Assembly: GCA_965204375.1 (NCBI GenBank)
Contig: OZ241986.1
Location: 4,544,001 to 4,608,000 of the forward strand
Source of the DNA: Candidatus Latescibacterota bacterium
Lineage (GTDB): Bacteria; Latescibacterota; UBA2968
Direction: 5' to 3'
Length of the DNA: 64,000 nt
In this document: in pieces, positions 5,305-20,841 of the stretch
How the letters are laid out: each line of letters begins with the position of its first letter
How positions within the stretch are numbered: the first letter of the stretch is position 1
Program-made: the position numbers and the translations under genes
Notes under the pieces: model-generated
Seen by the model: only the letters and a program-made list of their open reading frames with translations
Database searches by the model: none
Told to the model about the DNA's origin: nothing

Positions 5305-5468
5305 CTCCTTTTCCCCTCCCAAGGACGGTTTTGAAATAATCCTCCCTTCTGACATTTCTTAGATTCACAGAATGACTTTTCCGTTCCCCATTTTCTGTAC
5401 AAAAATTGTTAAGATTCTGTTAAAATCCGTAAAAAAAACGCGCCCATTTCTCAATGGACGCGCTTTAT
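5305..5468 (-). repeat. Duplicated upstream block (terminator U, promoter region, RBS), copy A
   Basis: Colinear homology with 8317-8478, including identical AAAACGCGCCCATTTCTCAATGGACGCG hairpin. Confidence 0.8.
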
Positions 5469-5504: not shown

Positions 5505-8237
5505 TCAATTGACAATCACAAACAGACCCTTCTGGGTCTGCCCCAAACTCTCGGGATGGTGTGACTCAATCACCCAGATATACGTACCGGCATTGAGACG
5601 ACCCCGCGTATTGGCATTCAAGCCCACCGTATGCGTATCCCACTCGACCTCGCCCTGCACCACCGGGCTACCCCGCTGCGGATCGAGTGAATCAAAGGTA
5701 TCACGCCAGGCCAGATCGCCCGTCAGCGTGTAAATGTACAGCGTACACCTGCTCGGCACATTGATCCACCGGATGCGAGGCGCGCCATAGCTGTGCTCAT
5801 CCATGCCCTGTACCCAGGGATTGGGCACCACCCTGATCGGCAGTGACATGGACTCATTTTCATGATTGAGCAAGGCAGAGGTCAAGCGCGGCACAAGGCC
5901 ATTGGGGGGATTCAGATACTGATTGCGCTCATCCGAGTGCCCGGTTTCCAGACCCTGCTCATCAAAAGCGCGTACCGAATAGTGGTAAACAAATCCCTGG
6001 CTGGGCTCTGGATCAGTAAACATATAGGTACCCCAGCGGAAAGGACCATCAACCTCGGCTTCGGCAGGCTCCTCCTCGCCTTCTGCCCAGGGCTGATTGA
6101 TAAAAGAAGCACCCGGGGGCGCATCTGAGGGCAACTGCCGTTCGCCCTCAGGTCCCACAGCCTTGGGAATCGTCGCCAGCAATTTCCACGGACCAGCCCG
6201 CATAAAATCAGAGCGATAGATCCGATAACCCAGCACATCGGGACGACCCAGATCCGGATCAATCGCCGTATCGGCAATACCCGACCAGTTCAGTTCGACT
6301 TTCCCTTCCAGATTCGTCATCCCATTGACCTTCACATCGGGTGGTTGGTTAAGCCCGTCAAAACCCAGATCATACAGCTTTTGAGCCTCATTGCCGTGGG
6401 CATAAATCGCTTCGAGACCCAGTTCCAATTCGTCAACCAGACTCTGCTGCTGCCAGTTCCACTCGTAGGGACGCGCATAATTCCCGCTATCCATGCGATA
6501 TTTGGCTGAATTGGCCGCCATACCCGCCACATACGCGATCACGACTTTTGCTTTGTCGCCGGGACCCAGGGTATAGGGACCGTAAATCTGTGCATCGATC
6601 CACGCACCCAATTCCTCATTGTCGTGGTGCTGCACCATCCGATCGGTCTCATGATCTCCGAGCACGCCAGCAGCATCGCTATAGATGTCAAACAATTGAT
6701 TCTCGCCGTGCGTACCGCCATGCGGATCATCGCCTAATGCCGAAGAATACATCCGCCATCTGAACACAGTGTGGGGCTGTGGACCTTGCGGCTTCACATA
6801 ACCGCCTTTTCTATCCAGAGCATTAAAGGGATGCTCAGATGTACCCGTCGCAATCGGCATCATCCCGATGTACTGCGGAGAAAGCAACGTATCATCCTTA
6901 AAATTGGACGTTGATACGTATTGATGCTGTGCGCGGGATCGGGTATAAGGCTCACCCAAGTCATTCCACAGGCGGGCAACGGCATCGCCATCATACACAT
7001 ACGTCAGGTGCATCGGCGCACCCTTGTAGTTGTAGGCATATTCCGGATGATCGTAATTATCCGCCTGTGTATAGCGCCAGTGATCGTCTTGCGTGGAAGG
7101 CTGCACAAGGTTCCACGCATTCGAGTTCGATCCGCCAGCCGGCACCCACTCAGCACCGGTCTTGCTGGCGATAAACCCGTTCTTGACCACGATATAGACT
7201 TCGTCGAGTTGTTTGGGATATCCGGCATCTGCTTTGCCATCGCCATCTGTATCGCCGTTATTCCAGAACTCGATCTCCGTGATCAAAAAGTCGTCGTAAT
7301 CACCCCGGGTCATGATCGAAGACTGCTTGCCTTTAGGAGTTGGCACGGGGATCATCACGTCGTTATCAGTACCGGGTGTGGAATACGCATGGATCATCCG
7401 CTTCACCGTAATACCCGAAGCCTGTGTCCAGCCGGTCACCAGCAGATTCTCACCGAACAACTCGGGCGACAAACGCGGATCATTGGTCTTCACCCCATTC
7501 GATCGCATCTGATTCAATCCGGCGCGCACCCTTTTGTAGGATGACTCCAGCATCTGCTTGAACGACTCATTGTTCAGGGGATAAAATCCATAGCCCCAGT
7601 TGTAATAATCCATTGGCTCTACTTTTTCCGGTCCCGGCGGAAAAGCGCGTTGTCCCAAACCGCCGTAGGTACTGAAATCATACTGGTATTCCACAGCCTC
7701 GCCATTCACAAAATGGTGTGTGATCTTCATATCTCTCATGCGGGGCCAATAAAGCGCAGCATTCTGCCCGTAATTGAACAGATTAAAAGGGCGACCACCA
7801 GACCGCCACACAGACCGCCAGATCGATGCAATGCTTTCGACATTATTGCGCGGATTGTGCTGGATAGAAAAAATGTCTGCGGTTGGCTGGCGGGGACCTC
7901 CCTGAGATACAAACTTGCGACCATCATTTGTGCGCGCCATCACCCACACGCCATTGCCACGCGAATTGTCCTGCCGGTTCACGCGGTTCACAATACCCGA
8001 CGAATAGGTCGAAGTCCACCGTCCGGGATAAGACATGCCCACCTCAGCACCAATGATGGTACCGCCATCCAGCGAGTGCCCCAAGGTGCCGTTGTTGCGC
8101 ATCGACACCCAGAGCTTCGCGCGATTGGTCGTACGGCGGCGCGTGCGCTGCTGCGCCTCGACATCAATCGCCATATACAACTCCGACACACCCAACACAC
8201 CAATTAGAATTAGACAAAACAATAAAAACTTGCGCAT
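5505..8237 (-). CDS. Large secreted protein with FN3-like domain and FCB-type C-terminal Ig/FlgD-like (T9SS-CTD-like) domain
   Basis: Start MRKFLLF (ATG 8237, RBS AGGAGG); VELNWS...GYRIYRS...YHYSVRAFD FN3 signature; IRVVPNPW...IRWINVPSRCTLYIYTLTGDL...W C-terminus. Confidence 0.7.
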   Translation of the reverse strand: MRKFLLFCLILIGVLGVSELYMAIDVEAQQRTRRRTTNRAKLWVSMRNNGTLGHSLDGGTIIGAEVGMSYPGRWTSTYSSGIVNRVNRQDNSRGNGVWVMARTNDGRKFVSQGGPRQPTADIFSIQHNPRNNVESIASIWRSVWRSGGRPFNLFNYGQNAALYWPRMRDMKITHHFVNGEAVEYQYDFSTYGGLGQRAFPPGPEKVEPMDYYNWGYGFYPLNNESFKQMLESSYKRVRAGLNQMRSNGVKTNDPRLSPELFGENLLVTGWTQASGITVKRMIHAYSTPGTDNDVMIPVPTPKGKQSSIMTRGDYDDFLITEIEFWNNGDTDGDGKADAGYPKQLDEVYIVVKNGFIASKTGAEWVPAGGSNSNAWNLVQPSTQDDHWRYTQADNYDHPEYAYNYKGAPMHLTYVYDGDAVARLWNDLGEPYTRSRAQHQYVSTSNFKDDTLLSPQYIGMMPIATGTSEHPFNALDRKGGYVKPQGPQPHTVFRWRMYSSALGDDPHGGTHGENQLFDIYSDAAGVLGDHETDRMVQHHDNEELGAWIDAQIYGPYTLGPGDKAKVVIAYVAGMAANSAKYRMDSGNYARPYEWNWQQQSLVDELELGLEAIYAHGNEAQKLYDLGFDGLNQPPDVKVNGMTNLEGKVELNWSGIADTAIDPDLGRPDVLGYRIYRSDFMRAGPWKLLATIPKAVGPEGERQLPSDAPPGASFINQPWAEGEEEPAEAEVDGPFRWGTYMFTDPEPSQGFVYHYSVRAFDEQGLETGHSDERNQYLNPPNGLVPRLTSALLNHENESMSLPIRVVPNPWVQGMDEHSYGAPRIRWINVPSRCTLYIYTLTGDLAWRDTFDSLDPQRGSPVVQGEVEWDTHTVGLNANTRGRLNAGTYIWVIESHHPESLGQTQKGLFVIVN

Positions 8238-8252
8238 CGTGTGATTCCTCCT

Positions 8253-8304
8253 ATTTTGCCCCGGCGTGCCTCCGCGCACCTACAAGTCCGCGGAATTTTC
8301 ACTC
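8253..8304 (-). pseudogene. 52-nt relic of the TonB receptor plug-coding region in the leader of the 910-aa gene
   Basis: 46/52 identical to 4769-4820 (ENSAGLYVRGGTPGQN); Tyr codon changed to TAG. Confidence 0.8.
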
Positions 8305-8316
8305 CTCTTCAGAGTC

Positions 8317-8478
8317 CTCCTTTCCCCTCCCAAGGACAATATTGAAAGAACCCACTCTTTTAATATTTATTAAACTCACTTATTGATTCTCTTGTTCCCC
8401 ATTTTTTGTACGAAATTGTAAGACTATGTTAAGCTATGTAAAACAAAACGCGCCCATTTCTCAATGGACGCGTTTTAT
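8317..8478 (-). repeat. Duplicated upstream block, copy B
   Basis: Homologous to 5305-5468. Confidence 0.8.
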
Positions 8479-8487
8479 CGTATCTGA

Positions 8488-8555
8488 ACAGGCGGAAAGC
8501 CAACCAATACTATATCAATACGCCGATGTTAGAGTTATTTTTACAACTATCGGAT
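8488..8555. repeat. 68-bp direct repeat (GWxTD gene 3' end plus downstream DNA), left copy
   Basis: 63/68 identical to 14535-14602. Confidence 0.88.
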
Positions 8556-8572
8556 AGAGGAATTAATCGCCC

Positions 8573-8647
8573 AAAAAAAAGCCGCTCAAACAAGCGGCTT
8601 TTGCATTAGGGGCGCTGAATCACTTCATCCCAAAAATCACGGCATCC
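8573..8647. repeat. Terminator T copy 2 plus degenerate copy of DUF4249 gene 3' end
   Basis: Colinear similarity to 1793-1866; relic reads WDAVIFGMK* versus ADSVVFRVE*, with the same stop-to-terminator spacing. Confidence 0.7.
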
Positions 8648-8672
8648 CATTGGGACCAGCATTTCATCCAAT

Positions 8673-9527
8673 TTAGGGATCTATGGATAATGTCTCAGGA
8701 GTGAGAAATGCGAGCCAGTTCTGTACCGTTTCCATGTCCCTTCTTGCCTCGGTAACATTGAGGTTATAGGTCTCAGCGATTGAGCGAGATGCTCTTGGGA
8801 TTTCGATGTTATGCAACCGTATCACGGTGTTAGTGAAGGGGGCGGCGAGCAAACAAGCCGATGCCCACATTCGAACCTGCTCATCGGTCAACCCTGGAGG
8901 GATTCGGAGAGCTTGGATGTCGTGCTGCGCCGCTCGTTGCTCGTCGAATGAAGCTATCTCATCTTCTCTGTCTTGATATGAGAGTTCTAAATTCCTAAAA
9001 TCACGAGTCGCTGGTCGCCAAGTATCAAGCTGGGGTTGGTCGCCAGTAATTACGCTGTTACTCTGCGTACTGATCTCAGTTATGGCTTCCCAACGTGCGA
9101 ATTCGTCATCGCCTATTTCTCTCGATCCTTCCAGAAGTCCCTGCTGAAAGGCGTATGCATCAAAGTCGTCTCCCGGACGACAAAGGATCTCCAAGTTAGG
9201 TTGGCGCGACCATCCCATCGCGGACGATGTCAGGTTGGCAGATCCGATGAGGACCACACTATCGACTCGGTAGTATTTGGCATGAAGTGAGGGATGGAGC
9301 CTGAATGAGCCACCACGCTCAGTGACAATAGTGCGGCATTCAGTGTCGGACGCCCCTACAGCGAGGTCGTGCAAATTCCACCTCGTGATACAAATGAGGG
9401 ATGCGACTGGACTCACGTCTGCCAGAACTCTGGTAAGAGCATCCGTCTTAATATACGGTGCTGCCAAGATGAGATCCTGAGCACCTGAACAGAGCTGGCT
9501 CAACAAATCTCCTGGCCCAATAGACAT
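8673..9527 (-). CDS. Phospholipase D-family (single HKD) nuclease
   Basis: LILAAPYIK...LHAKYYRVDSVVLIGSANLT motif of PLD-type nucleases; last gene of operon. Confidence 0.85.
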   Translation of the reverse strand: MSIGPGDLLSQLCSGAQDLILAAPYIKTDALTRVLADVSPVASLICITRWNLHDLAVGASDTECRTIVTERGGSFRLHPSLHAKYYRVDSVVLIGSANLTSSAMGWSRQPNLEILCRPGDDFDAYAFQQGLLEGSREIGDDEFARWEAITEISTQSNSVITGDQPQLDTWRPATRDFRNLELSYQDREDEIASFDEQRAAQHDIQALRIPPGLTDEQVRMWASACLLAAPFTNTVIRLHNIEIPRASRSIAETYNLNVTEARRDMETVQNWLAFLTPETLSIDP

Positions 9528-9529
9528 AT

Positions 9530-11386
9530 TTATTCGTCCCTATCACGCAGTTGATTGATGACCTTATCTACTTGGCGCCCCCAATTCATACTGATGTTTT
9601 GGATATGCATTCGTTCTTCCCGTGATTCGGTCTGGTCTTCCATTCGTGCCCATGACGACAGTAATAATCGGATAGCGACACTGGCCTCAAATAAAGGATG
9701 GCTCTCGTCAATATTTTCGTCAAGACGACCTTCGATGTGCTTGAGCAGATTGTAGATTGGATGGTCAGTATTAAGATTGATATGCAGGACTCCTTGATTC
9801 GAGCGCACATTAAACATCTGATATCCGTCAAGTTGAGCTGGATTGAATTGATATGAGAGACCTTGCTCTACCAGCATCTTTGCGAGTTTTTGGGCTTCCT
9901 GACCGTCCTGACCAGATTCAATGAACTGTTCCGTAAGACCGGCTTCTCGCTCTTCGGATGGAATTTGCTCACGGTCTTTATCAGTGTTGGTTGGTGTCTC
10001 TATACCGGCCGTTATAGCGTCTCGGTCTGCATCAGTGGCAGTCTCTACAGCCTTAATTTCTGGGCTTCTACTGCCACCCCCATTCTGTGGGTTTCGTTTC
10101 TGATTAAACATCTGCCTTATGTCGCGCATCATGGAACGCGTTCGATCCCGGATGTCTCCCACGATATCGTATATGGGATCTTCGTCTATCCCCATCTCGT
10201 CAAGTATGACTTGATTAGGACGGTCATCACGAGCGAGGGTCTTAGCGGCCTGTGTAAAGTTTGCAACCATCTGTTTATTGTGGTCCACACCAAACAACTC
10301 ATCGCAGTTGCGAAAGAAGAGAACTTCACAGCCCCACCAGCGGTTCTGCGGATTCTCATCACTACCACCTTCTCTGAGGAAGGCATCTTCAAGAACGATC
10401 TCTCTATCTTCCCGGACGACTGATACACCAATGTTGTGTCTGGCGTGCTTACCATAATCGGTAGTGCCTGGATTCTGTGAGACTCTATCTGTTTTCAGGG
10501 CCTCAGGCGTCACAATTGAATATTTTACTTCAATAGTTACCTCCCGACCATCCACAATAGGTGTATAGTATTTCGTATCGCCGTATTGGGTAAACATCGG
10601 TTTACTATTCCATGGCTCAGGAGTAGATGTGGGATTCATCAAGTATAGAGGATCATTCGCGACAAATCGCGTCTCATCAAGTTCGGTAGGACGGATATCA
10701 AGGAAAGATACCGCTTTTATTCTATGTATTTCAGCATCAATGAAATGCCGATGGATGCGCCCAACTTATCGAGAAGTATTGTCGATTATCGTGCGAGCGG
10801 TTTTCCATTGAATCTTGTCCAATTTGCTCCACACTACAAGAGTGCCTGAGCGATTTCGATAGATCTCGTCGCTGCCAGCCGTTCTCCACACCTCAGGTAT
10901 AGGCGTGTCTTGGTCAGGAATCGGCACAAGGTGGTCACCTTGTGCTATGATATCAGCATCAATGCTGGAGTGCCATACTGAGTCCACACCGTCTTGCCAC
11001 GTCCACACATCTACTCTCTTGCATTGGGACATTGATGATGTGGGTAGGCCCATGCCATACTTTCCTATTCCCTTTTGAGAATTATGCCTGGTGCCCCCGC
11101 CAAACTTCAAGGCATCCAAAAGGGTCTGCCAGTCCATCCCTGTACCATTATCCAAGACAGCCATTTTAGATATTCGCCGCTGTCGCCTCTGCGACTCCGT
11201 CCTATGGACTTTCTCCATGCAAAGAAGTTCGATTTGTTCGGCATCGGCCTCTATCGAGTTGTCTATGAGTTCTGCTATGGCATAGGCGGTATTATGATAC
11301 CGACTGTCCCGAAGAGCTCGTATCGTGAAGCTGCTGGGAAATAGGCTGCGATCTGCGTCTTTTAGGTCGTTGAGTTGTTCGACCAT
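9530..11386 (-). pseudogene. MORC/GHKL (HATPase_c_3) ATPase, about 618 codons, interrupted by one in-frame TAA at 10766-10768
   Basis: ATG 11386 with GGAGG RBS; AIAELIDNSIEA, VLDNGTGM, GIGKYGMGL, SGTLVVWSKLD motifs; frame continues NTSR*VGRIHRHFI...ANDPLYLMNPT into ORF 9530-10642. Confidence 0.85.
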
Positions 11387-12609
11387 AGTTCCTCCCAATT
11401 CGTGAATGCATCTGTCACAGACCCGAAACCCGGAAGGTTCGTATCTGCAACGGTGAATATCTCGGCTTTTGGATTTCCGCCTGACCGGGGCCCGCGCATC
11501 GCTCGACCTGCCATTTGTGAGTAGAGTACCAGTGATGTGGTAGGCCGGGCGATAATGACGCAACGAGTCCTGGGCGCGTCAAAACCGGCGGTAAGCACGC
11601 CGTAGTTGAACACCACTTTATGCTCCCTGCTGTCGCTCCTAAAGTCATCAACAATAGATCGGCGATCTTCACCTGGTGTATTCGCTGTTACCACTGCACT
11701 TGCAACTCCTTTACTGCGGAGAAGTCTGTTGCATTCCACAGCACTTTCAACAGAAGGGCAAAAAACAATTGTACGAAGGTGGCGTCTAACTGCATCCTCT
11801 GTGAGTTCGACTATTTTTATTGTCCGCTCGTGGTTGCGACCCAGATCGTCCAACTCATGAGTGCTGTAATCCATACCAGGTTGAGGATCTGTAATTACGA
11901 TATCGGAGTCGAAGCTGATCGGCACAAAGCGGGGATCGGCGAGGTAGCGATTCTGGATTAGATAGGTAACGGGGCTATCGTAACCTCTTGGATCTATCGA
12001 AACCTTGTTGTGATTGAACATGTCGGCAAGTCGATAGTCCTCATCCGTTAGATTCGCTGTGCGTCCTGGCGTAGCCGTAAGACCAAGGAGGGGCGGCCTA
12101 ACACTGCATAGCTGCTCAGTTATAAAAGAGTAAGTTTCCGCAACTGCCTGATGAGCCTCGTCAAAAATGACGGCAGCAGCACAGTTCGCAAGGTGTGCAA
12201 GGAGAGTGTTGTCTTGGAATGCAGCAGAGCGCAGTTTGGCAAGACCTGTCACCAAGAACCCGGATGGAAGACGCCGTAGATCAAGTGACCGGCTTCCCCA
12301 GTTTCGATGAATGGAGGCATCCCACCGTCCCAGATATGTCCAGGCGTCTGCGAGTTGGTTTGCCGCTTGTTCGCAAAGTTCCTCAGTAGCAGCCAACCAG
12401 ATGACCAAGGAATTATCGGTGTCTTTTTCGTTGAGCAAGTGACATGCCGTGTGGGCTGCGATTCTGGTCTTTCCCGCACCGGTAGGAAGATGAGCCACGG
12501 CTCGACGTTCAGGAGATGATAGGGCATGAAGGATGTCAGTCAACACCTGCCGCTGGTAGGGATATAGCGGGAACTTCGGCCTGACCGTTTCCACCTCTGT
12601 TTCAGACAC
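11362..12609 (-). CDS. SF2 DEAD/DEAH (ResIII-like) helicase
   Basis: LYPYQ, LPTGAGKT, DEAH, GLTATP, VLTAGFDAP, QMAGRAMRG; likely GTG start at 12609 overlapping the upstream stop (alternative ATG 12675). Confidence 0.92.
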   Translation of the reverse strand: MSETEVETVRPKFPLYPYQRQVLTDILHALSSPERRAVAHLPTGAGKTRIAAHTACHLLNEKDTDNSLVIWLAATEELCEQAANQLADAWTYLGRWDASIHRNWGSRSLDLRRLPSGFLVTGLAKLRSAAFQDNTLLAHLANCAAAVIFDEAHQAVAETYSFITEQLCSVRPPLLGLTATPGRTANLTDEDYRLADMFNHNKVSIDPRGYDSPVTYLIQNRYLADPRFVPISFDSDIVITDPQPGMDYSTHELDDLGRNHERTIKIVELTEDAVRRHLRTIVFCPSVESAVECNRLLRSKGVASAVVTANTPGEDRRSIVDDFRSDSREHKVVFNYGVLTAGFDAPRTRCVIIARPTTSLVLYSQMAGRAMRGPRSGGNPKAEIFTVADTNLPGFGSVTDAFTNWEELWSNNSTT

Positions 12610-13471
12610 CGCAAAGGCCTTCGCATTCGTTTTCAAAGTGATTGATCCCTTCCCCTCCCTCTGTTTCTTGCTCATCAATAACGCTGTCAAGGGGACGACG
12701 TGCAGAATGTAGATATGGCCGACCGTGTAGCAATTCCCTTACAGGATTCTTTGTACTATGGCGGAGCCATCGATCAAAATGCACAGCCTCCTCGTAGCTA
12801 TCTGGTTCAGACTGCTTTAGTTCCAACCAATGTTCGTCTGACCGATAAGGACAGATGACGCAAGCTGACCGGGGCAGGTGGCGACCTGGATATTCCGAGT
12901 TAAACCATTCAACACAATCTTGGCGTGTCATACCAATATCCACTAGTGGCCAGCGATGTTCGACCCACCGTTCTCGGCTCGGCTTCATGCGGCCCACTTC
13001 ATCCAGCGAAATTCCGATCCACATTTCGGCGTGGGTGTTCTTGGGAAATGGTCGGCCGCGCTGTCCTCCCGCGAGTTCCCTAACCCGTCGATAAATAGGC
13101 TTAATCTTGTAGTGAGTGGTGCATTGCCGCCGCAACATGCCCTTCTTCCCATCCCCATTGACAGTGAATAAGGGAACATCAACAAAGTTGTGACCCGACA
13201 CCGTGCGGGCTTTTTTAAGATTAGTTTTTAGATCGCCTTCAGACACGCGAATCAGTGGATATTGGAGTTGCTCTTCAAGCCAGTCCAAATGTTGATATAC
13301 ATAAGCTGGCTCCCATCCAGTATCAGCGAAGACGGCGACGTCAGGTTTAGGATAGCCCAACTCAATCAAACGAGGGTGGGACCTCGATAGGAGGAGTGCT
13401 AAAACAGAACTCTGTACGCCAGCCCCCAAGCTCAGGGCACGATAGGTTACGGTGCTCGTCTTCACGACCAT
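12602..13471 (-). CDS. PAPS-reductase/PP-loop (adenine nucleotide alpha-hydrolase)-like protein with Cys motifs
   Basis: LSLGAGVQSS PP-loop variant, FADTGWEP, RRQCT..YKIKP, WIGISLDE, SACVICPY, C-terminal ECEGLCGV. Confidence 0.8.
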   Translation of the reverse strand: MVVKTSTVTYRALSLGAGVQSSVLALLLSRSHPRLIELGYPKPDVAVFADTGWEPAYVYQHLDWLEEQLQYPLIRVSEGDLKTNLKKARTVSGHNFVDVPLFTVNGDGKKGMLRRQCTTHYKIKPIYRRVRELAGGQRGRPFPKNTHAEMWIGISLDEVGRMKPSRERWVEHRWPLVDIGMTRQDCVEWFNSEYPGRHLPRSACVICPYRSDEHWLELKQSEPDSYEEAVHFDRWLRHSTKNPVRELLHGRPYLHSARRPLDSVIDEQETEGGEGINHFENECEGLCGV

Positions 13472-13533
13472 TTCGAAAGCCTCCTTGATTCAGTTGCATG
13501 AATGTCTGCTCAGGACAGATAAAAATATGAGAT

Positions 13534-13562
13534 ATTATAGTCAGTAGCGGTAAAAGGGTCAA
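13534..13562 (-). promoter_or_regulatory. Near-consensus sigma70 promoter of the four-gene operon
   Basis: TTGACC (13562-13557), 17-bp spacer, TATAAT (13539-13534) on the minus strand. Confidence 0.75.
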
Positions 13563-14011
13563 GGGAGAGGATGGAAAATTTTTGATATCGTTAAATGGCG
13601 GTAAGCAGTTTTTATAGACTGCTTACCAAACGAGTTTTCGCTATAGATTACAGGCTGACTGATGTTACGCGATGTCCCTGTATTTCGTCCTGCATTGGGA
13701 ACTCACGTCACGCATCTAACGTCGCTCAGAATCTCAGCAAATATCAGGCCAATGTCACAGCATCGCGTGACAAATTGTATGGACAGCATCAAAAACCCTT
13801 ATTATGTCTTCGATATGCTGTATTGCGCCCTTGTTCACGACCTGAATTTTAAGGATCGTCTGTTGAAAAGAAAGCGGCACAGAACAATTTCGGATGCGAA
13901 AGTGTATATTTTGAGCGATGAATGAGTGGTCAGGTGAAAGATATGTACCGCTTGACCATGTAGCTGCCGCGGTGGTTATCTGTGTGTGCTTGCGTAACGC
14001 GAGAGGCTAAC

Positions 14012-14113
14012 AAAAAAAGCCGCTCAAAAGAGCGGCTTTTGCAATCGCACTACCATCAGACCGTCGCCTGCAGATCCTTCAGATAACTCAACGTATCGCG
14101 GATACTCGCCTCT
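14012..14113 (-). repeat. Terminator T copy 3 plus duplicate of sugar-isomerase gene 3' end
   Basis: 14056-14113 is 52/58 identical to 16981-17038 (EASIRDTLSYLKDLQATV* versus ...KELQATV*). Confidence 0.9.
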
Positions 14114-14115
14114 TT

Positions 14116-14376
14116 TTAGCGTTGATATACGTCTCCCGTTTCACGAAGCAAATCGCGCAAAGGCCGTGTCTCGCTATTCTCCTCGTTCGCTTCTTCCATT
14201 AACATGGTATCAACAGCATCCTGCAAGTGAGGAGGAAGCGTCTCCCAATCTGTTTCCCGAGCCACCTTTTGAATTAAAGTCTTGAAATCGTCATATCCAA
14301 GTATCACCTCTATGACCTCACCTGAATCATCATATACCCATTTTGGAGAACGAGATTTTTCGAGAATGCGTGTCAT
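14116..14376 (-). CDS. Small acidic hypothetical protein (orphan antitoxin-like)
   Basis: Start MTRILEK (ATG 14376), 86 aa; PKWVYDDSGEVIEVILGYDDF N-terminus resembles small antitoxin-like proteins. Confidence 0.5.
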   Translation of the reverse strand: MTRILEKSRSPKWVYDDSGEVIEVILGYDDFKTLIQKVARETDWETLPPHLQDAVDTMLMEEANEENSETRPLRDLLRETGDVYQR

Positions 14377-14440
14377 ATTACCCTCAATAGTATTGATCAA
14401 GTTAAATCTGAAAATAAGTTGAATTTCTATTGATGTCAAT

Positions 14441-14536
14441 TCAGGACTGTCGCTTATAGCTCTTTCAAATACCTCAGCGTATCGCGGATGCTTGCCTCAG
14501 TCGTATCCGACGTCCCTTTCTCTACACACAGCGGAC
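14441..14536 (-). repeat. Second, longer degenerate duplicate of sugar-isomerase gene 3' end
   Basis: Aligns with 16981-17075; reads PLCVEKGTSDTTEASIRDTLRYLKEL*. Confidence 0.88.
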
Positions 14537-14602
14537 AGGTGGAAAATCAACCAATACTATATCAATACGCCGATGTTAGAGTTATTTTTTCAACCATCGG
14601 AT
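14535..14602. repeat. 68-bp direct repeat, right copy (includes GWxTD stop codon)
   Basis: 63/68 identical to 8488-8555. Confidence 0.88.
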
Positions 14603-16944
14603 CGGAAGCGCACTTCGCGTTCGACGCTCTTGCCACTGACCAGGTCGGTTACAATGACCTCGAGTGCGTTGACCCCGGGTCTGACTTTGTTGAGTACGAT
14701 TTCGACGTATTCCCGTTCGTCGGCGTCGCGTCCCGTGAGCTCGTTAGTGATGGCCACCTGGGGTTTGCTGGTTCTAAAGATGGTGCGCAACCCCGTAGCC
14801 ACTGCGCCAAATACACCAACAGCGGGCATAGCACTGGAACGAATGCGGTATTCGGTTTTGTAACGGGTTTGTCCAAAGGTGTCTTTGGTCAGGTTGTAGA
14901 TTTCAAAGTAGGCATAGACATTTTGCGTTGCGGCATAACTGCGCGTGGGAATGGGGATGATCCACACATCTTCTTTTTGGAATTTTGTCGCGCCTTCTTC
15001 CGCAATGCTCGAGGCCAGTTGAATTTCACTGACTTGAAGCTCTGGGATCTGATAGTCTCTGACTTCGAGTTCTTGCCGGTAGAGTCCGGTGCGTCCAGAG
15101 ATGAGGTCTTTCATTTGCACTTGAAGTTCGTATTTGCCGGGCGGTACCTGTGTTTTGATGATTTCAGGCACAAAAGCACCCTGTTCGATTGTGCTGGGTA
15201 CTTGCGCGCCGCGATACGCGAACTCATCGGTTGTGCGATAGATGGATGTATGACCCTCATTTGCCAGCGCAACGGCCAATTGTACGTGTATGAAACTCGA
15301 ATCGGCTTCTTGCTCAATTTCGACCTGCTCGGGCGGGATGCCGTAATAAATCTCGAGATTGGTTTGCCCGTCGGGTCCGCGGAAGTGCGCCAGATCATAG
15401 TAGAAATTGAGTATATCGCCGGGAAGACCAGGGCGGTAAAAATCGGGTGAAGTCGATACGGCTTGCTGGTAGATGACTTCGGGCATGTATTCGGTCATGC
15501 GGGCGATATAAGCGATGGCTTCGGGATCTGCAATGCTTGTGGCTTCGGGTAATGGGGCAAAGTCATAGCGTCCATTGCCCATTTCGTCGGTAAAGGTAAT
15601 CTCTATGCCCCCATTGATCTGAATATAGGTCCAGGTTTCCCAGGGCACAGTATCAATTTCACTGCCAATGGTAACAGGCGAAAAGCGGCCAAATTGTAAG
15701 CGGGTGTTGAGTTGTCCCGTTTGCTCATCGAGAACGCTTTCGATGGTGCCATCGCCCTCAAATGGATTATCCTCAACGAGTTCGAAACTTATGTCGCGGT
15801 TGGTGCGAATGGGAAAGACGGGACCTGTGAAGGTGAAATGGGCAGCTTCAGGACCGTAGATGTCAACGGCCATCTGCGTGCGCACGCGCTCTACTTCGGC
15901 GGTTTGAAAAAAGTTGCGATCATTGGAGCGCGACCGATAGTCGGGTTCGCCATATCGAATATAAACAGCACCTCGCTCATCCCAGGGATAGACATTGGAC
16001 GAAAAATAGGTGCGCGCATACCAGGTGCGGCGGTAGTGTTCGATGACGCGCTCGTTGAGTTTGGTGAGAATATCGGGGTCGCGCCGTGCCCAGAATTGCT
16101 CGCGATATGCCTGTTGTTCGGGCCCCGGTGTGGCGGCGTGGTATTCCTGGAGTTCTGTATCTGAGGCAACATAGGCAATATCGGTGTAGTGTGCGCGTTC
16201 ACTGCTTTTGATGTTGGCGAGATAACGCTCGAAGAGTTCAAGGGCTTTTTGCGCCTCGTCGTTGTAAAAATGACCCTGTGCAACAATGGGCAAGAGCTGA
16301 ACCACATCGGGGTGTGCGGAGAGATAGGGAGCAATATGTTCGAGAATGGTGTCAAATGCTTTGGCCTGTACACAGGCTAAGCCGTAATAATAAAGATTAT
16401 CGGGATTATCGGGTTCGAGTTCGACGTATTTCTGATAGTACTGCATAGCCCTATTGTGGTCTTCTTCAAATCGCTCATAGACTTCGCCGAGCAGACGATA
16501 GGCCGGACCGTAATTGGGATCGAGTTTGGTGGCGCGCTTGGCTTCGCCAATAGCTCTGTGAAAATTGTAATAAGATTGCAGGCCCCGCGTGGGTACTTTG
16601 GCATACGTAAGGCCAAGCCCGACATAGGCCTCGACGAGGCTTTTGTCGAATTTTTTGGCTGTTTTGAAGGCGCCTTCAGCTTCTTTGTATTCTTTCCGTT
16701 TGAGATAGATATAACCCAGTTGAGAATACACATGGGCGTCTTCGGGAAAGTTTTTTAAAATGCGTTGGAGAGTCGCCATGGCCTCGTTGATTTCACCCGC
16801 TTGAATCTGACGCTGGCTCAGGGCAAACAGCGTATTTCGGACGATCTTGTCTTGTTGAGGTGCTTCATCTTCTTCTGCAAGAAGAGGCAGCGCAATGCAA
16901 GAGGCACAGCAGACAACCATCCAGAACTGCAATCCAATTTTCAT
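14590..16944 (-). CDS. TPR-repeat plus GWxTD-domain secreted protein
   Basis: Signal peptide; several TPRs; FWARRDP...EHYRRTWYA...PWDERGAVYIRYGEPD (GWxTD-domain variant); C-terminal Ig-like domains. Confidence 0.82.
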   Translation of the reverse strand: MKIGLQFWMVVCCASCIALPLLAEEDEAPQQDKIVRNTLFALSQRQIQAGEINEAMATLQRILKNFPEDAHVYSQLGYIYLKRKEYKEAEGAFKTAKKFDKSLVEAYVGLGLTYAKVPTRGLQSYYNFHRAIGEAKRATKLDPNYGPAYRLLGEVYERFEEDHNRAMQYYQKYVELEPDNPDNLYYYGLACVQAKAFDTILEHIAPYLSAHPDVVQLLPIVAQGHFYNDEAQKALELFERYLANIKSSERAHYTDIAYVASDTELQEYHAATPGPEQQAYREQFWARRDPDILTKLNERVIEHYRRTWYARTYFSSNVYPWDERGAVYIRYGEPDYRSRSNDRNFFQTAEVERVRTQMAVDIYGPEAAHFTFTGPVFPIRTNRDISFELVEDNPFEGDGTIESVLDEQTGQLNTRLQFGRFSPVTIGSEIDTVPWETWTYIQINGGIEITFTDEMGNGRYDFAPLPEATSIADPEAIAYIARMTEYMPEVIYQQAVSTSPDFYRPGLPGDILNFYYDLAHFRGPDGQTNLEIYYGIPPEQVEIEQEADSSFIHVQLAVALANEGHTSIYRTTDEFAYRGAQVPSTIEQGAFVPEIIKTQVPPGKYELQVQMKDLISGRTGLYRQELEVRDYQIPELQVSEIQLASSIAEEGATKFQKEDVWIIPIPTRSYAATQNVYAYFEIYNLTKDTFGQTRYKTEYRIRSSAMPAVGVFGAVATGLRTIFRTSKPQVAITNELTGRDADEREYVEIVLNKVRPGVNALEVIVTDLVSGKSVEREVRFRSDG

Positions 16945-16980
16945 GGTGTTCTCCCGATTGATCAAGATGTAAAACTGCTC

Positions 16981-17790
16981 TTAGACCGTCGCTTGCAGCT
17001 CTTTCAAATAACTCAGCGTATCGCGGATACTCGCCTCTGTCGTCTCCGACGCACCCTTCTCCACACACAGTGGACCCGCGTAATCTGCCGCATTTAAAAT
17101 TTCCAAACACGTCTTCAAATCATATCCCATAGCTTTGCCATCCCGCTCCCACGCCTGCACGCCGTCATCACTGTAATTAAACACCTTCACATGACACGAA
17201 AACGCGCGCGGTGCCAGCACGCGCATGCCCGCCTCCCAATCGCCATCGGGAAAATTCGCCGTATCTGGACAGGTGCCAAACCAATCGGAACCCACCCCAT
17301 CCAAAATCCGCTGCAAATTATCAGAAGAAGACGACACCCCCCCGTGATTCTCCACCAGCAGCTTCACACCCGCCTGCTCGCCCACAGCCACCAATTCCCG
17401 ATACCCCTCAATCACCCGGCTCATCGCCCCATCGTCATCCGCGTGCCCCGTATTAATCCGTATCGCCTCGGACCCCACAGCCGACGCCGTGTAAAACCAC
17501 TGCTTCAGCGCCTCCAGATCCGTGCGCCGCACAGCCGCATCAGCACCCGCAATATTGCCCATATCCACCGCGATATTGCGCACCGAAAGTCCATTGTCAG
17601 CCAACCGATTCCGAAGCTCATTCAAATACCTCGCATCCTGAGACTCAAAAAACCGCGAACACAACTCCACTGTCTCCACGCCATGGGAGGCACACACCTC
17701 GGGAAATTCCAGCAAAGTCAGCGACTTCTCCCGCAAAATTTCACCGCTAAGCACCCATCCGGCAATACCGAGTTCGAGATCCATACTCAT
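16981..17790 (-). CDS. Sugar phosphate isomerase/epimerase (xylose isomerase-like TIM barrel)
   Basis: LLVENHGG, TCPDTANF, CHVK, LCVE metal-site motifs. Confidence 0.88.
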   Translation of the reverse strand: MSMDLELGIAGWVLSGEILREKSLTLLEFPEVCASHGVETVELCSRFFESQDARYLNELRNRLADNGLSVRNIAVDMGNIAGADAAVRRTDLEALKQWFYTASAVGSEAIRINTGHADDDGAMSRVIEGYRELVAVGEQAGVKLLVENHGGVSSSSDNLQRILDGVGSDWFGTCPDTANFPDGDWEAGMRVLAPRAFSCHVKVFNYSDDGVQAWERDGKAMGYDLKTCLEILNAADYAGPLCVEKGASETTEASIRDTLSYLKELQATV

Positions 17791-20047: not shown

Positions 20048-20494
20048 TCAACTTTTACACAGATAAAGACCCAGGTCTTTCTCAGCCTCTCCCTCTAACA
20101 GACCGACCTGCACGGGAATATCCGCGTCTTTGAGAATTTGGATGCCGCGCCCGCGATTTTTGGGATGCGGGTCGATGAGTGCGACAAAAACATCTCGGAT
20201 TTTTCTTTTAACAAGTGCTTGCGCACACGAAGGCGTGCGTCCGTAAAAAGAGCACGGCTCCAGAGTGACAAATGCCGTAACATCTTCCAGTGAATCCGCC
20301 ACTTGCGCCAGTGCCATCGCCTCTGCGTGAAATTGACCCGGAGGATTGGTATAACCCCGGGCAATAATTTTGCCTTCTCGCACCAGCACACACCCAACCG
20401 GAGGATTGGGCAAACATTCGGGAAGCGCTTTTCTCCCCTCGACGAGCGCGGCGGTCATGAAGTGCTGTAGTTCGGTTTGAGAATATTTAGACAT
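20048..20494 (-). CDS. Stand-alone RibD-type cytidine/pyrimidine deaminase domain protein
   Basis: Start MSKYSQ (ATG 20494); PNPPVGCV, HAE, TLEPC...TPSC zinc motif; no reductase domain. Confidence 0.82.
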   Translation of the reverse strand: MSKYSQTELQHFMTAALVEGRKALPECLPNPPVGCVLVREGKIIARGYTNPPGQFHAEAMALAQVADSLEDVTAFVTLEPCSFYGRTPSCAQALVKRKIRDVFVALIDPHPKNRGRGIQILKDADIPVQVGLLEGEAEKDLGLYLCKS

Positions 20495-20613
20495 TGGATA
20501 AGAGATTACTTGGCGCGAAAAACGCCCCGGCACAACGATGCTGGGGCGTTCTCTTTTTGTCCTGTTGCACTTAAAGAGGTGTGACAGGCTATTGTTTGAG
20601 GAGGATTGTTGCA

Positions 20614-20841
20614 CTATTTGGAAAGCAGATTCAACAAAGCAATGGATGTAGCGATATTGGTTGCCAGAATCGTAAACAACAAACCGATAATCCATTTGAT
20701 CATACTGGTAACGCGGGTATCCATATTGTTCAGGCGGGTATCAATGCCATTGAGTCTTTCGTTGATCTGCGTGTTGATGCCTTCCAACATTGCAATACGG
20801 GTTTCGTGGTCAGCAACGCGGGTTTCCAGTGTAGGCAACAT
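20614..20841 (-). CDS. Small coiled-coil protein with C-terminal TM helix (DUF1640/XhlA-like)
   Basis: Heptads ETRVADHETRIAM...RLNGIDTRLNNMDTR followed by KWIIGLLFTIL; hairpin terminator at 20521-20550. Confidence 0.6.
   Translation of the reverse strand: MLPTLETRVADHETRIAMLEGINTQINERLNGIDTRLNNMDTRVTSMIKWIIGLLFTILATNIATSIALLNLLSK

Follow-up and report, generated by a model that had tools for sequence, protein, structure and literature searches.

A stretch of 64,000 nucleotides (nt) from Candidatus Latescibacterota bacterium (contig OZ241986.1 of assembly GCA_965204375.1, positions 4,544,001 to 4,608,000 of the forward strand), called the window here, carries a compact cassette of four genes on its minus strand. 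The genes encode a PP-loop protein resembling 3'-phosphoadenosine 5'-phosphosulfate (PAPS) reductases, a superfamily 2 (SF2) helicase, a MORC-type GHKL ATPase and a PLD-family nuclease with a single HKD motif. The cassette is a conserved unit that moves horizontally as a whole. Judged by its sequence, it looks like an undescribed phage defence of the modification-linked restriction type, in which a predicted MORC module is paired with a single-gene writer taken over from mobile elements. The interpretation preferred here, which is given a little less than an even chance, is that the system resembles restriction-modification: the PP-loop enzyme would mark host DNA and the other three proteins (the trio) would cut DNA that is unmarked.

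The cassette unit, comprising the promoter, the four genes and a 12-nt tail, lies at 8661..13621 (minus strand) and is delimited by what the window has in common with a second copy in the same genome (90.5% identity over 4969 nt). A sigma-70-type promoter, TTGACC-17-TATAAT, is located at 13534..13562 (minus strand), approximately 63 nt upstream of the PP-loop ATG, which is preceded by an AAGGAGG ribosome-binding site. With 11/12 matches it is the top-scoring promoter-like site within 8000..15000, although sites of this class are not enriched there (9 found versus 8.1 expected from shuffles). The same promoter and leader recur 5' of the cassette at four other loci (L026, L001, L002 and L003) and TTGACG variants are present at two more (L004 and L008); L-numbers are labels of individual loci. 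The first gene (12602..13471, minus strand) is intact and encodes a PP-loop/PAPS-reductase-like protein of 289 amino acids (aa) with the motifs SLGAGVQS, RRQC117, C204xxC207 (CVIC) and EC283EGLC287GV. It is followed on the same strand by the gene for a 415-aa RadD/XPB-like SF2 helicase (11362..12609) with the Walker A motif PTGAGKT and the DEAH box FDEAHQ, the gene for the MORC-type ATPase (9530..11386, 618 codons), in which an in-frame TAA at 10768..10766 makes it a pseudogene or the source of a truncated product, and the gene for the 284-aa PLD-family nuclease (8673..9527) with H82, K84, D89, GSxN and a helical C-terminal domain (approximately residues 166-284). The helicase gene starts with a GTG at 12609 that overlaps the PP-loop stop by 8 nt, the MORC start overlaps the end of the helicase gene by 25 nt, and the PLD gene starts 2 nt after the MORC stop. 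Repeat and inverted-repeat analysis placed a terminator-like G+C hairpin with a T run 3' of the PLD gene (8574..8605, minus strand); a second copy of the hairpin lies 5' of the cassette at 14012-14043, and the terminator scan flagged only that copy (14040..14015). The arrangement thus appears as the preliminary description of this DNA had given it, with its coordinates, overlaps and promoter all present, and the four genes are translationally coupled and are predicted to form one compact transcription unit.

The grouping of these genes is beyond chance. A pattern scan with the PP-loop protein, which covered one genome per species, returned 17 genome loci, and all 17 share an identical gene order (PP-loop, helicase, MORC, PLD) as well as the spacing of the genes. 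The 8-nt overlap is kept in 17/17 copies with an intact helicase gene. The taxon labels of the 17 loci are Latescibacterota (eight), Dehalococcoidia and other Chloroflexota (six), Alphaproteobacteria (one), Rhodothermaceae (one, on a 9-kb contig whose binning is uncertain) and "uncultured bacterium" (one), and their PP-loop proteins are 70-99% identical. In a set of 168 Latescibacterota genomes, strong matches to the PP-loop profile (at least 351 bits) are present at 12 places, spread over 11 genomes, and at each of the 12 a strong MORC match follows approximately 1-2 kb downstream on the same strand. A metagenome scan with the MORC alignment gave four loci, three of them on contigs too short to hold the upstream gene; the only contig long enough for all four genes (L031) has all four. 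Sequencing runs that hold cassette sequence include some labeled as sponge, marine and coral-reef metagenomes. The 19 cassette PP-loop proteins form one clade (97 in the Shimodaira-Hasegawa-like approximate likelihood ratio test) in which the taxa are intermixed.

The genome that contains the window (6.34 Mb, one contig) has a second cassette at approximately 0.65 Mb (C1, approximately 647,500-652,500; L026, 8515-13473) in which the MORC gene is intact. The window and this copy align over 13621..8661, and their flanks are unrelated. The second copy is located in a defence island (own genome C1, approximately 639,000-658,500) together with a gene for a Fic-domain protein that matches the PADLOC candidate PDC-S24 (5e-184), a putative AbiC-like gene, a ParB-HTH-like open reading frame (ORF) and a gene for an N6/N4 methyltransferase-HNH fusion.

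The PP-loop protein is probably an iron-sulfur (Fe-S) enzyme of the ATP-pyrophosphatase type whose ancestry lies in a family of phage and plasmid proteins. Its match to phrog_424 ("PAPS reductase") has an E-value of 1.4e-43 and covers residues 10-289. The residues invariant in 66 diverse members are G16, G18, Q20 and S21 (of SLGAGVQS), D50, R115, C117, E158, R161, C204, C207, P208, W215 and the C283-x-G-x-C287 motif, while C186 is 90% conserved. An AlphaFold model has a mean predicted local distance difference test (pLDDT) score of 92.8, with residues 284-289 below 50, marking a flexible tail. This Cys-bearing C-terminal tail resembles the catalytic ECGLH tail of CysH. The folds closest to the model are PAPS and adenosine 5'-phosphosulfate (APS) reductases (7rge, Z 11.8; 6vpu, Z 10.8; 2goy, Z 10.6; 7lhr, Z 10.4), and other nearby folds are the [4Fe-4S] tRNA thiolase NcsA (Z 10.3), TilS and the Cap9-CdnD complex (9nto, Z 8.3). 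Foldseek returned generic PP-loop matches only, at template modelling scores of approximately 0.4. A sequence search of the PDB with the protein alone found nothing at E <=10; the family profile had a single weak match there, chain C of 21fy ("PptA", 270 aa; E 5e-4), in the CxxC region. This chain, which may be a newly solved relative, is matched by none of the other three cassette proteins. From its sequence and model, the protein looks like a sulfur-transfer enzyme.

The relationship to SspD that the preliminary description had proposed is borne out, as a distant one. Profile alignment (hhalign) of the PP-loop family with true SspD gave a probability of 98.8% at 25% identity, with the RxC and CxxC ligands conserved and aligned. 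As an SspD orthologue, however, the protein was rejected: its match to the PADLOC SspD model (3.8e-15, 54.3 bits) compares with 363-448 bits for the true SspD of four loci (L034, L035, L036 and L041), and in a quick maximum-likelihood tree of 93 rows the cassette clade nests among phage, plasmid and metagenome members, far from the four true SspD proteins, from which a long branch with a support of 100 separates it. It is therefore a homologue only. Orthology with DndC was likewise rejected, as there is no DndC match at E <=0.01. A CysH role in assimilatory sulfate reduction was rejected on context, which is helicase-MORC-PLD at 17/17 loci and mobile-element genes elsewhere. Complex prediction for the PP-loop protein with the helicase and PLD proteins (17-row alignments, MORC left out) gave scores of 0.00 and 0.00, which are not counted either way.

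The wider family is large and is found on phages and plasmids. Of 8000 scored candidates, 7783 match at E <=0.001, with identities of 74% or more throughout the top 120; among 1.84 billion sequences, 4256 cluster representatives match, 1252 of them at E <=1e-30. Relatives are present in 52 phage records, at least 593 viral contigs and 196 plasmid records, and the viral and plasmid members are 40-47% identical to the PP-loop protein. A MORC or PLD homologue is encoded at 0/80 of the viral loci kept, and a 26%-identical helicase at one, so only one narrow PP-loop clade travels with the trio. The co-occurrence with the other three genes that had been expected of PP-loop homologues therefore holds always within the cassette clade and not in the wider family. 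Among 142 distinct viral flanking ORFs, 72 were scanned, the longer ones being chosen. Twelve of these encode DNA-modification enzymes (nine C5 cytosine methylases, one N6/N4 methylase, one Dam methylase and one Mom), and the others include 12 UvrD-type helicases, four 2-oxoglutarate-Fe(II) oxygenases, replication and packaging genes, and unassigned ORFs. On three conjugative or mobilisable plasmids, the PP-loop gene directly follows an ArdC-like DUF1738/zincin gene in a stretch resembling a leading region, and in a phage-plasmid the PP-loop relative is the C-terminal part of a protein annotated as a cytosine methyltransferase. This mobile-element context fits a putative stand-alone DNA-modifying or anti-restriction enzyme. 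A passage in a 2026 paper (PMC13551039) lists phage PAPS reductase genes in anti-CRISPR-associated operons and, citing Piel 2022, says that a PAPS reductase encoded by a phage helps to evade the Dnd system of the host. Some members of the family (P0124, P0125, P0127, P0133 of approximately 540 aa, and P0240) have an N-terminal DUF6339 or ArsR/MarR-type helix-turn-helix domain; a literature search found no mention of DUF6339.

Alternatively, the target of the PP-loop enzyme may not be DNA but a protein or nucleotide, whose modification would regulate or arm the trio; other defence systems have QueC-like PP-loop enzymes that act in this way. The list of similar folds, which includes Cap9-CdnD and other small-molecule PP-loop enzymes, is in keeping with this explanation, and the invariant and flexible C-terminal Cys tail could pass an intermediate to a partner. 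However, the best relatives of the protein are PAPS/APS reductases, SspD and tRNA thiolases, and the neighbors of the family on mobile elements are DNA methylases and replication genes. Modification of a protein or nucleotide is judged to be very improbable.

The proteins of the trio have features of restriction effectors. The helicase, in which the Walker A and DEAH motifs are intact, has ResIII (4e-20) and Helicase_C domains, is RadD-like (2e-33), matches the PADLOC PbeA model (1.4e-20) and is related to the solved chains of RadD (6jde, 7e-22) and SauUSI (7clg, 1.7e-8). The MORC protein matches HATPase_c_3 (8e-23) and the PADLOC MzaB model (7e-16), and its closest solved relatives are human MORC2, MORC3 and MORC4. 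The PLD protein matches PLDc_2 weakly, PADLOC DrmC at 5.7e-9 and NCBIfam DrmC at 21 bits against a cut-off of 133. Its HKD residues (HxK...D...GSxN) are invariant among the cassette copies, and its model (pLDDT 83) has a nuclease-type fold closest to the PLD domain of SauUSI (Z 12.4), followed by NucT, Nuc and BfiI (Z 10-10.6). The C-terminal domain has weak fold matches only (BrxA, Z 5.5; FokI, 4.7; SspB, 4.5).

In the restriction-modification interpretation, the PP-loop enzyme would put a covalent mark on host DNA, probably one that contains sulfur (phosphorothioate-like or another thio modification). It would activate its target with ATP, and a cysteine persulfide relay would supply sulfur, for which it would rely on a cysteine desulfurase with a housekeeping role. 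At least three strong class-V aminotransferase/cysteine desulfurase genes are present elsewhere in the genome. The trio would work as a restriction machine that is powered by ATP and damages incoming DNA without the mark: the RadD/XPB-like helicase would translocate, the MORC ATPase would clamp or compact DNA, and the single-HKD nuclease would cut as a dimer. The interpretation is favored by the fixed operon and its horizontal spread, the homologous trios beside DNA-modification genes, the sulfur-enzyme features and mobile-element context of the PP-loop family, the defence-island setting of the intact copy and the desulfurase genes. We infer the action of the PP-loop enzyme on DNA, the type of mark, its protective rather than activating role and the protection against phage.

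Relatives of the trio are also found without the PP-loop gene. The scan of the 168 genomes gave 14 more distant MORC places (302-465 bits), of which eight were fetched and four of the other six are on short contigs. A helicase gene lies beside the MORC gene at all eight fetched loci and a separate PLD gene at seven of them; compared over full length with their cassette counterparts, the helicases are 38-41% identical, the MORC proteins 31-35% and the PLD proteins 22-39%. Directly upstream of the trio at L036 are SspB, SspC and SspD genes, and at L034 these are joined by a GmrSD_N/NsnA-like gene and a gene encoding 239 aa. At L035 and L041 the trio is preceded by SspC, SspD and a DndB-family gene, and at L038 by a DndB-family gene and a small GIY-YIG-like gene. 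At L039 and L040 the trio stands alone between lactate/hydroxyacid dehydrogenase genes, and at L037 an HKD-helicase fusion (PbeA, 1e-72) accompanies MORC and there is no separate PLD gene. For the distant MORC places in G144 and G117, which are not among the eight fetched, there are weak PAPS-reductase-like matches on the same strand, 2-3.6 kb upstream. The position of trio homologues directly 3' of true SspB, SspC and SspD genes ties the trio to the logic of DNA modification, and the solo trios between metabolic genes mean that the PP-loop gene is not obligatory for the trio. From its gene neighborhoods, the trio is a predicted modular unit of restriction type that in this phylum is accompanied by true phosphorothioation genes, DndB-like genes, a phage-type PP-loop gene or nothing; since solo trios and PP-loop cassettes both occur, it is not always tied to a full Dnd or Ssp cluster. 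At L034 (7974-9840) the GmrSD_N/NsnA-like gene and the unmatched 239-aa gene lie between the Ssp genes and the trio, and small ORFs with weak GIY-YIG-like matches lie beside the DndB-like genes at L038 (14534-15034) and L041 (13308-13772). Such intervening genes are possible further components of an Ssp-linked form.

These neighborhoods bear on two other explanations. In the first, the trio is self-sufficient and detects DNA that is foreign or modified by itself, as type IV enzymes such as SauUSI do; the PP-loop protein would then be an accessory captured from mobile elements that does not make a self-mark, and would for example mark DNA against other restriction systems or counter phage anti-defence. 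The solo trios, the two-gene arrangement of the HKD-helicase fusion and MORC at L037 and the resemblance of both the PLD domain and the helicase to SauUSI all favor such a trio, as do the placement of the cassette PP-loop clade within the phage and plasmid family rather than with SspD and the presence of that family alone on viruses. An accessory role is harder to reconcile with an operon and an 8-nt overlap kept across four phylum-level labels, or with a PP-loop gene that has been lost in 0/20 cassettes. The PP-loop protein is also highly conserved: its mean column identity over the same 17 copies is 81%, versus 82% for the helicase and 72% for PLD (MORC has 72%, in a different set of 16 rows). 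A self-sufficient trio is considered unlikely. In the second explanation, the mark that the PP-loop enzyme places on host DNA does not block the trio but stimulates it to attack phage DNA. The precedent is SspE, which according to a passage in PMC8092258 acts only with phosphorothioate-modified host DNA, and the trios that adjoin SspBCD and DndB-like genes are compatible with it. Under such a scheme, however, loss of the writer would be harmless and hence expected, yet none of the 20 cassettes is without a PP-loop gene, and the solo trios would be inert. Stimulation of the trio by the mark is regarded as quite improbable.

The way in which cassettes decay also bears on the restriction-modification interpretation. 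The TAA of the window MORC gene is at codon 207, and the read-through frame continues to a 618-codon protein. The position is a Glu in 17/17 intact homologues, within an invariant E-[VI]-G-R-I-H-R motif, so the change is from GAA to TAA (G-to-T). Contigs of three other studies (runs X4, X5 and X7) that are 98-99.5% identical over 10300-11300 have C and not A at 10768 and thus read GAA, which means that the mutation is recent and strain-specific. An assembly error was rejected as the origin of the TAA, although weakly: a deep contig of run X1 (depth 112) has the same A as the window, and X1 may be the source of the window itself. The closest relative, L001, has lost approximately 350 nt from the N-terminus of MORC, and at L013 the helicase gene is frameshifted. 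A trio gene is thus broken in three of 20 cassettes and the PP-loop gene in none, an asymmetry of the kind expected when a restriction-modification system decays, though the numbers are small. Identity between the window and L001 is 97.7% as far as the middle of MORC and falls to 87.5% beyond it, with the drop at the site of the L001 deletion (11276..10927), which indicates recombination (a mosaic) inside the cassette. The N-terminal part of the window MORC resembles L004, L008 and L016, whereas the second copy resembles L002. A decayed tandem copy is present at L003: pieces of another PP-loop gene (aa 71-105) and another helicase gene (aa 4-71) remain at 7046-7397, and the intact cassette follows 1.6 kb downstream.

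Whatever the nature of the system, it is somewhat probable that the window copy itself is a decaying, non-functional remnant that has no present role. The TAA at an invariant Glu, its presence in the deep contig of run X1 (with the reservation just given), the deletion in the closest relative and the pieces of a second cassette at L003 all agree with decay. Against this, the PP-loop, helicase and PLD genes of the window are intact with all their motifs, the mutation is recent, with the nearly identical contigs of three studies reading GAA, and an intact paralogous copy is present in the same genome. Because of that naturally intact copy, repair of the TAA, which the preliminary description had advised, is not needed before experiments.

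Several points weigh against the restriction-modification interpretation. The PP-loop protein falls below the Pfam PAPS_reduct cut-off (18.7 versus 22.5 bits), and its SLGAGVQS motif departs from the SGGxDS of SspD (the canonical SGGRDS loop). All phosphorothioate writers known so far depend on an ATPase together with a partner that nicks or binds DNA (SspB/C, DndD/E or BrxC; stated in a passage of PMC12707154). The cassette has no SspB or SspC ORFs, the SspC model PDLC02781 has no match in the 6.34-Mb genome, and there is no true SspD in that genome either. A writer made of one protein would therefore have no precedent, unless the role of the partner falls to the helicase or MORC. The solo trios at L039 and L040 mean that the trio may need no partner mark, and the adjacency to SspBCD could reflect clustering in defence islands rather than functional coupling. 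The count of three broken trio genes versus no broken PP-loop gene is small and the targets are unequal in size (approximately 4 kb for the trio versus 0.87 kb for the PP-loop gene). A more radical form of the proposal accepts the lone writer. In it, the single 289-residue Fe-S PP-loop enzyme would write an undescribed mark, which could be a thio modification or another one that depends on adenylation and is not necessarily a backbone phosphorothioate, and MORC, helicase and PLD would be its reader and executor; this form is rather doubtful.

The combination of the four genes matches no named system in PADLOC-DB 2.0.0 or in the literature searched, as the preliminary description had supposed. 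Not one of the four proteins has a dedicated model in PADLOC-DB 2.0.0, and since all of the matches are non-system-specific, the database does not contain this cassette. No report of a PAPS-reductase-like protein combined with MORC, helicase and PLD proteins was found in the full-text literature, although supplementary candidate lists could hold one. A close precedent, which the trio fits, is found in the prokaryotic operons of MORC, SFII helicase and nuclease genes that Iyer, Abhiman and Aravind predicted in 2008 to be restriction-modification-like; passages of that paper (PMC2292703) describe a MORC GHKL ATPase beside a Rad25/XPB-like helicase and an HKD nuclease, and note HKD domains fused to such helicases, as at L037. 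Those operons are linked to DNA methylases, and the terms "PAPS," "DndC" and "PP-loop" are missing from the text of PMC2292703, whereas the sole modification-type gene of the cassette is the PP-loop gene. Neither the cassette nor any of the scanned ORFs within the first 30 kb of the window encodes a methyltransferase. Judged by gene order, the PP-loop gene occupies the position expected for the putative modification gene of a MORC operon. According to a section of a 2026 preprint, prokaryotic MORC systems are still proposed and not tested.

Other systems share individual features with the cassette. The Ssp system (SspABCD with SspE or SspFGH) likewise has a PAPS-reductase-fold protein with RxC and CxxC and a modification gene joined to a separate restriction module, but the cassette lacks adjoining SspB and SspC, its PP-loop protein branches with phage and plasmid proteins, and its restriction genes are unrelated to SspE. 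The trio was rejected as SspFGH, because SspF has a Walker A motif and SspH an FtsK-like C-terminus, as described in a part of PMC8092258. With respect to the Dnd system (DndABCDE with DndFGH), the PP-loop protein has no DndC match and one DndB-family gene lies approximately 1.7 Mb away. The phage and plasmid genes of PHROG 424 belong to the same family and have the ECEGxCGV tail, but they stand alone without the trio whereas the cassette is a chromosomal four-gene operon. PbeA (of PbeABCD) and SauUSI resemble the helicase and PLD proteins at the scores given above; in the cassette, however, the nuclease and helicase are separate proteins with MORC between them, and no PbeB, PbeC or PbeD (CxC ABC ATPase, DndE) was seen beside it. 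In type 4 BREX, the PAPS-reductase-fold protein BrxP takes the place of a methyltransferase, as a passage of PMC12839542 states and as is proposed for the cassette. BrxP is a larger fusion with DUF4007, unlike the PP-loop protein, which has no BrxP match at E <=0.01, and the cassette is without BrxC, PglZ and BrxL. From DISARM there are only weak DrmC-model matches for the PLD protein and no DrmA or DrmB match for the other cassette proteins.

The cassette lies between two copies of a 68-nt direct repeat, which the preliminary description had taken to bound the segment. Copy 1 (14535..14602) overlaps the stop of a TPR/GWxTD gene (16965..14590), and copy 2 (8488..8555) contains a degenerate copy of the last codons of that gene. 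The repeat is real: the two copies are 93% identical, and there is no third one in the 6.34-Mb genome. Its extent, however, is not that of the cassette. The copies enclose more than the cassette, namely a 107-aa ORF, two pieces of the 3' end of a TIM-barrel gene and the duplicated terminator, and L001 has the same neighborhood with one repeat copy and without the TPR gene. The repeats were rejected as the ends of an element: the stretch shared with the second copy (13621..8661) carries no repeat, so the repeat does not delimit a mobile unit. At L016 the cassette lies between two copies, each of approximately 75 nt, of the promoter and ribosome-binding region of a host gene (approximately 8930-9000 and 13810-13890), and at L005 and L006 a shorter duplicated stretch is present on both sides. 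Together with the window repeat, these duplications hint at an insertion mechanism that may duplicate long target stretches. No integrase was seen.

Other features of the window concern its flanks. The 3' end of a gene encoding a xylose-isomerase-like TIM-barrel protein occurs in three copies (14049-14113, 14435-14536 and 16974-17075), of which one is the genuine end and the other two are fragments, with identities of 86% and 68%, that flank the 107-aa ORF (14439..14116). This ORF has no family match and is also present at L001. The fragments suggest that insertion or recombination took place more than once at the end of that gene. The regions 5310-5468 and 8321-8478 are repeated upstream regions (76-95% identity), with a terminator-like hairpin, of two large neighboring genes for secreted or outer-membrane proteins of 840 aa (TonB-plug-like) and 924 aa (no family). 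At 20048-20695 (minus strand), a 215-aa protein of the cytidine/deoxycytidylate deaminase fold is encoded, which also matches a MafB19-like deaminase (1.7e-9).

If the restriction-modification interpretation is correct, the mark made by the PP-loop enzyme would be the first partner mark of a prokaryotic MORC system that is open to testing. With its small size (5 kb), its own promoter and an intact natural copy, the cassette is easy to test. The trio would add a restriction module for Ssp-type modification, and a passage in PMC8092258 reports that 83.9% of sspBCD clusters are without a known partner. The interpretation would also suggest what the stand-alone "PAPS reductase" genes that abound on phages and plasmids do; these genes are usually classed as auxiliary genes of sulfur metabolism. 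Should the one-gene writer prove true, the cassette would be a minimal epigenetic immune system, and thousands of phage and plasmid "PAPS reductases" would be counter-restriction writers of the same mark.

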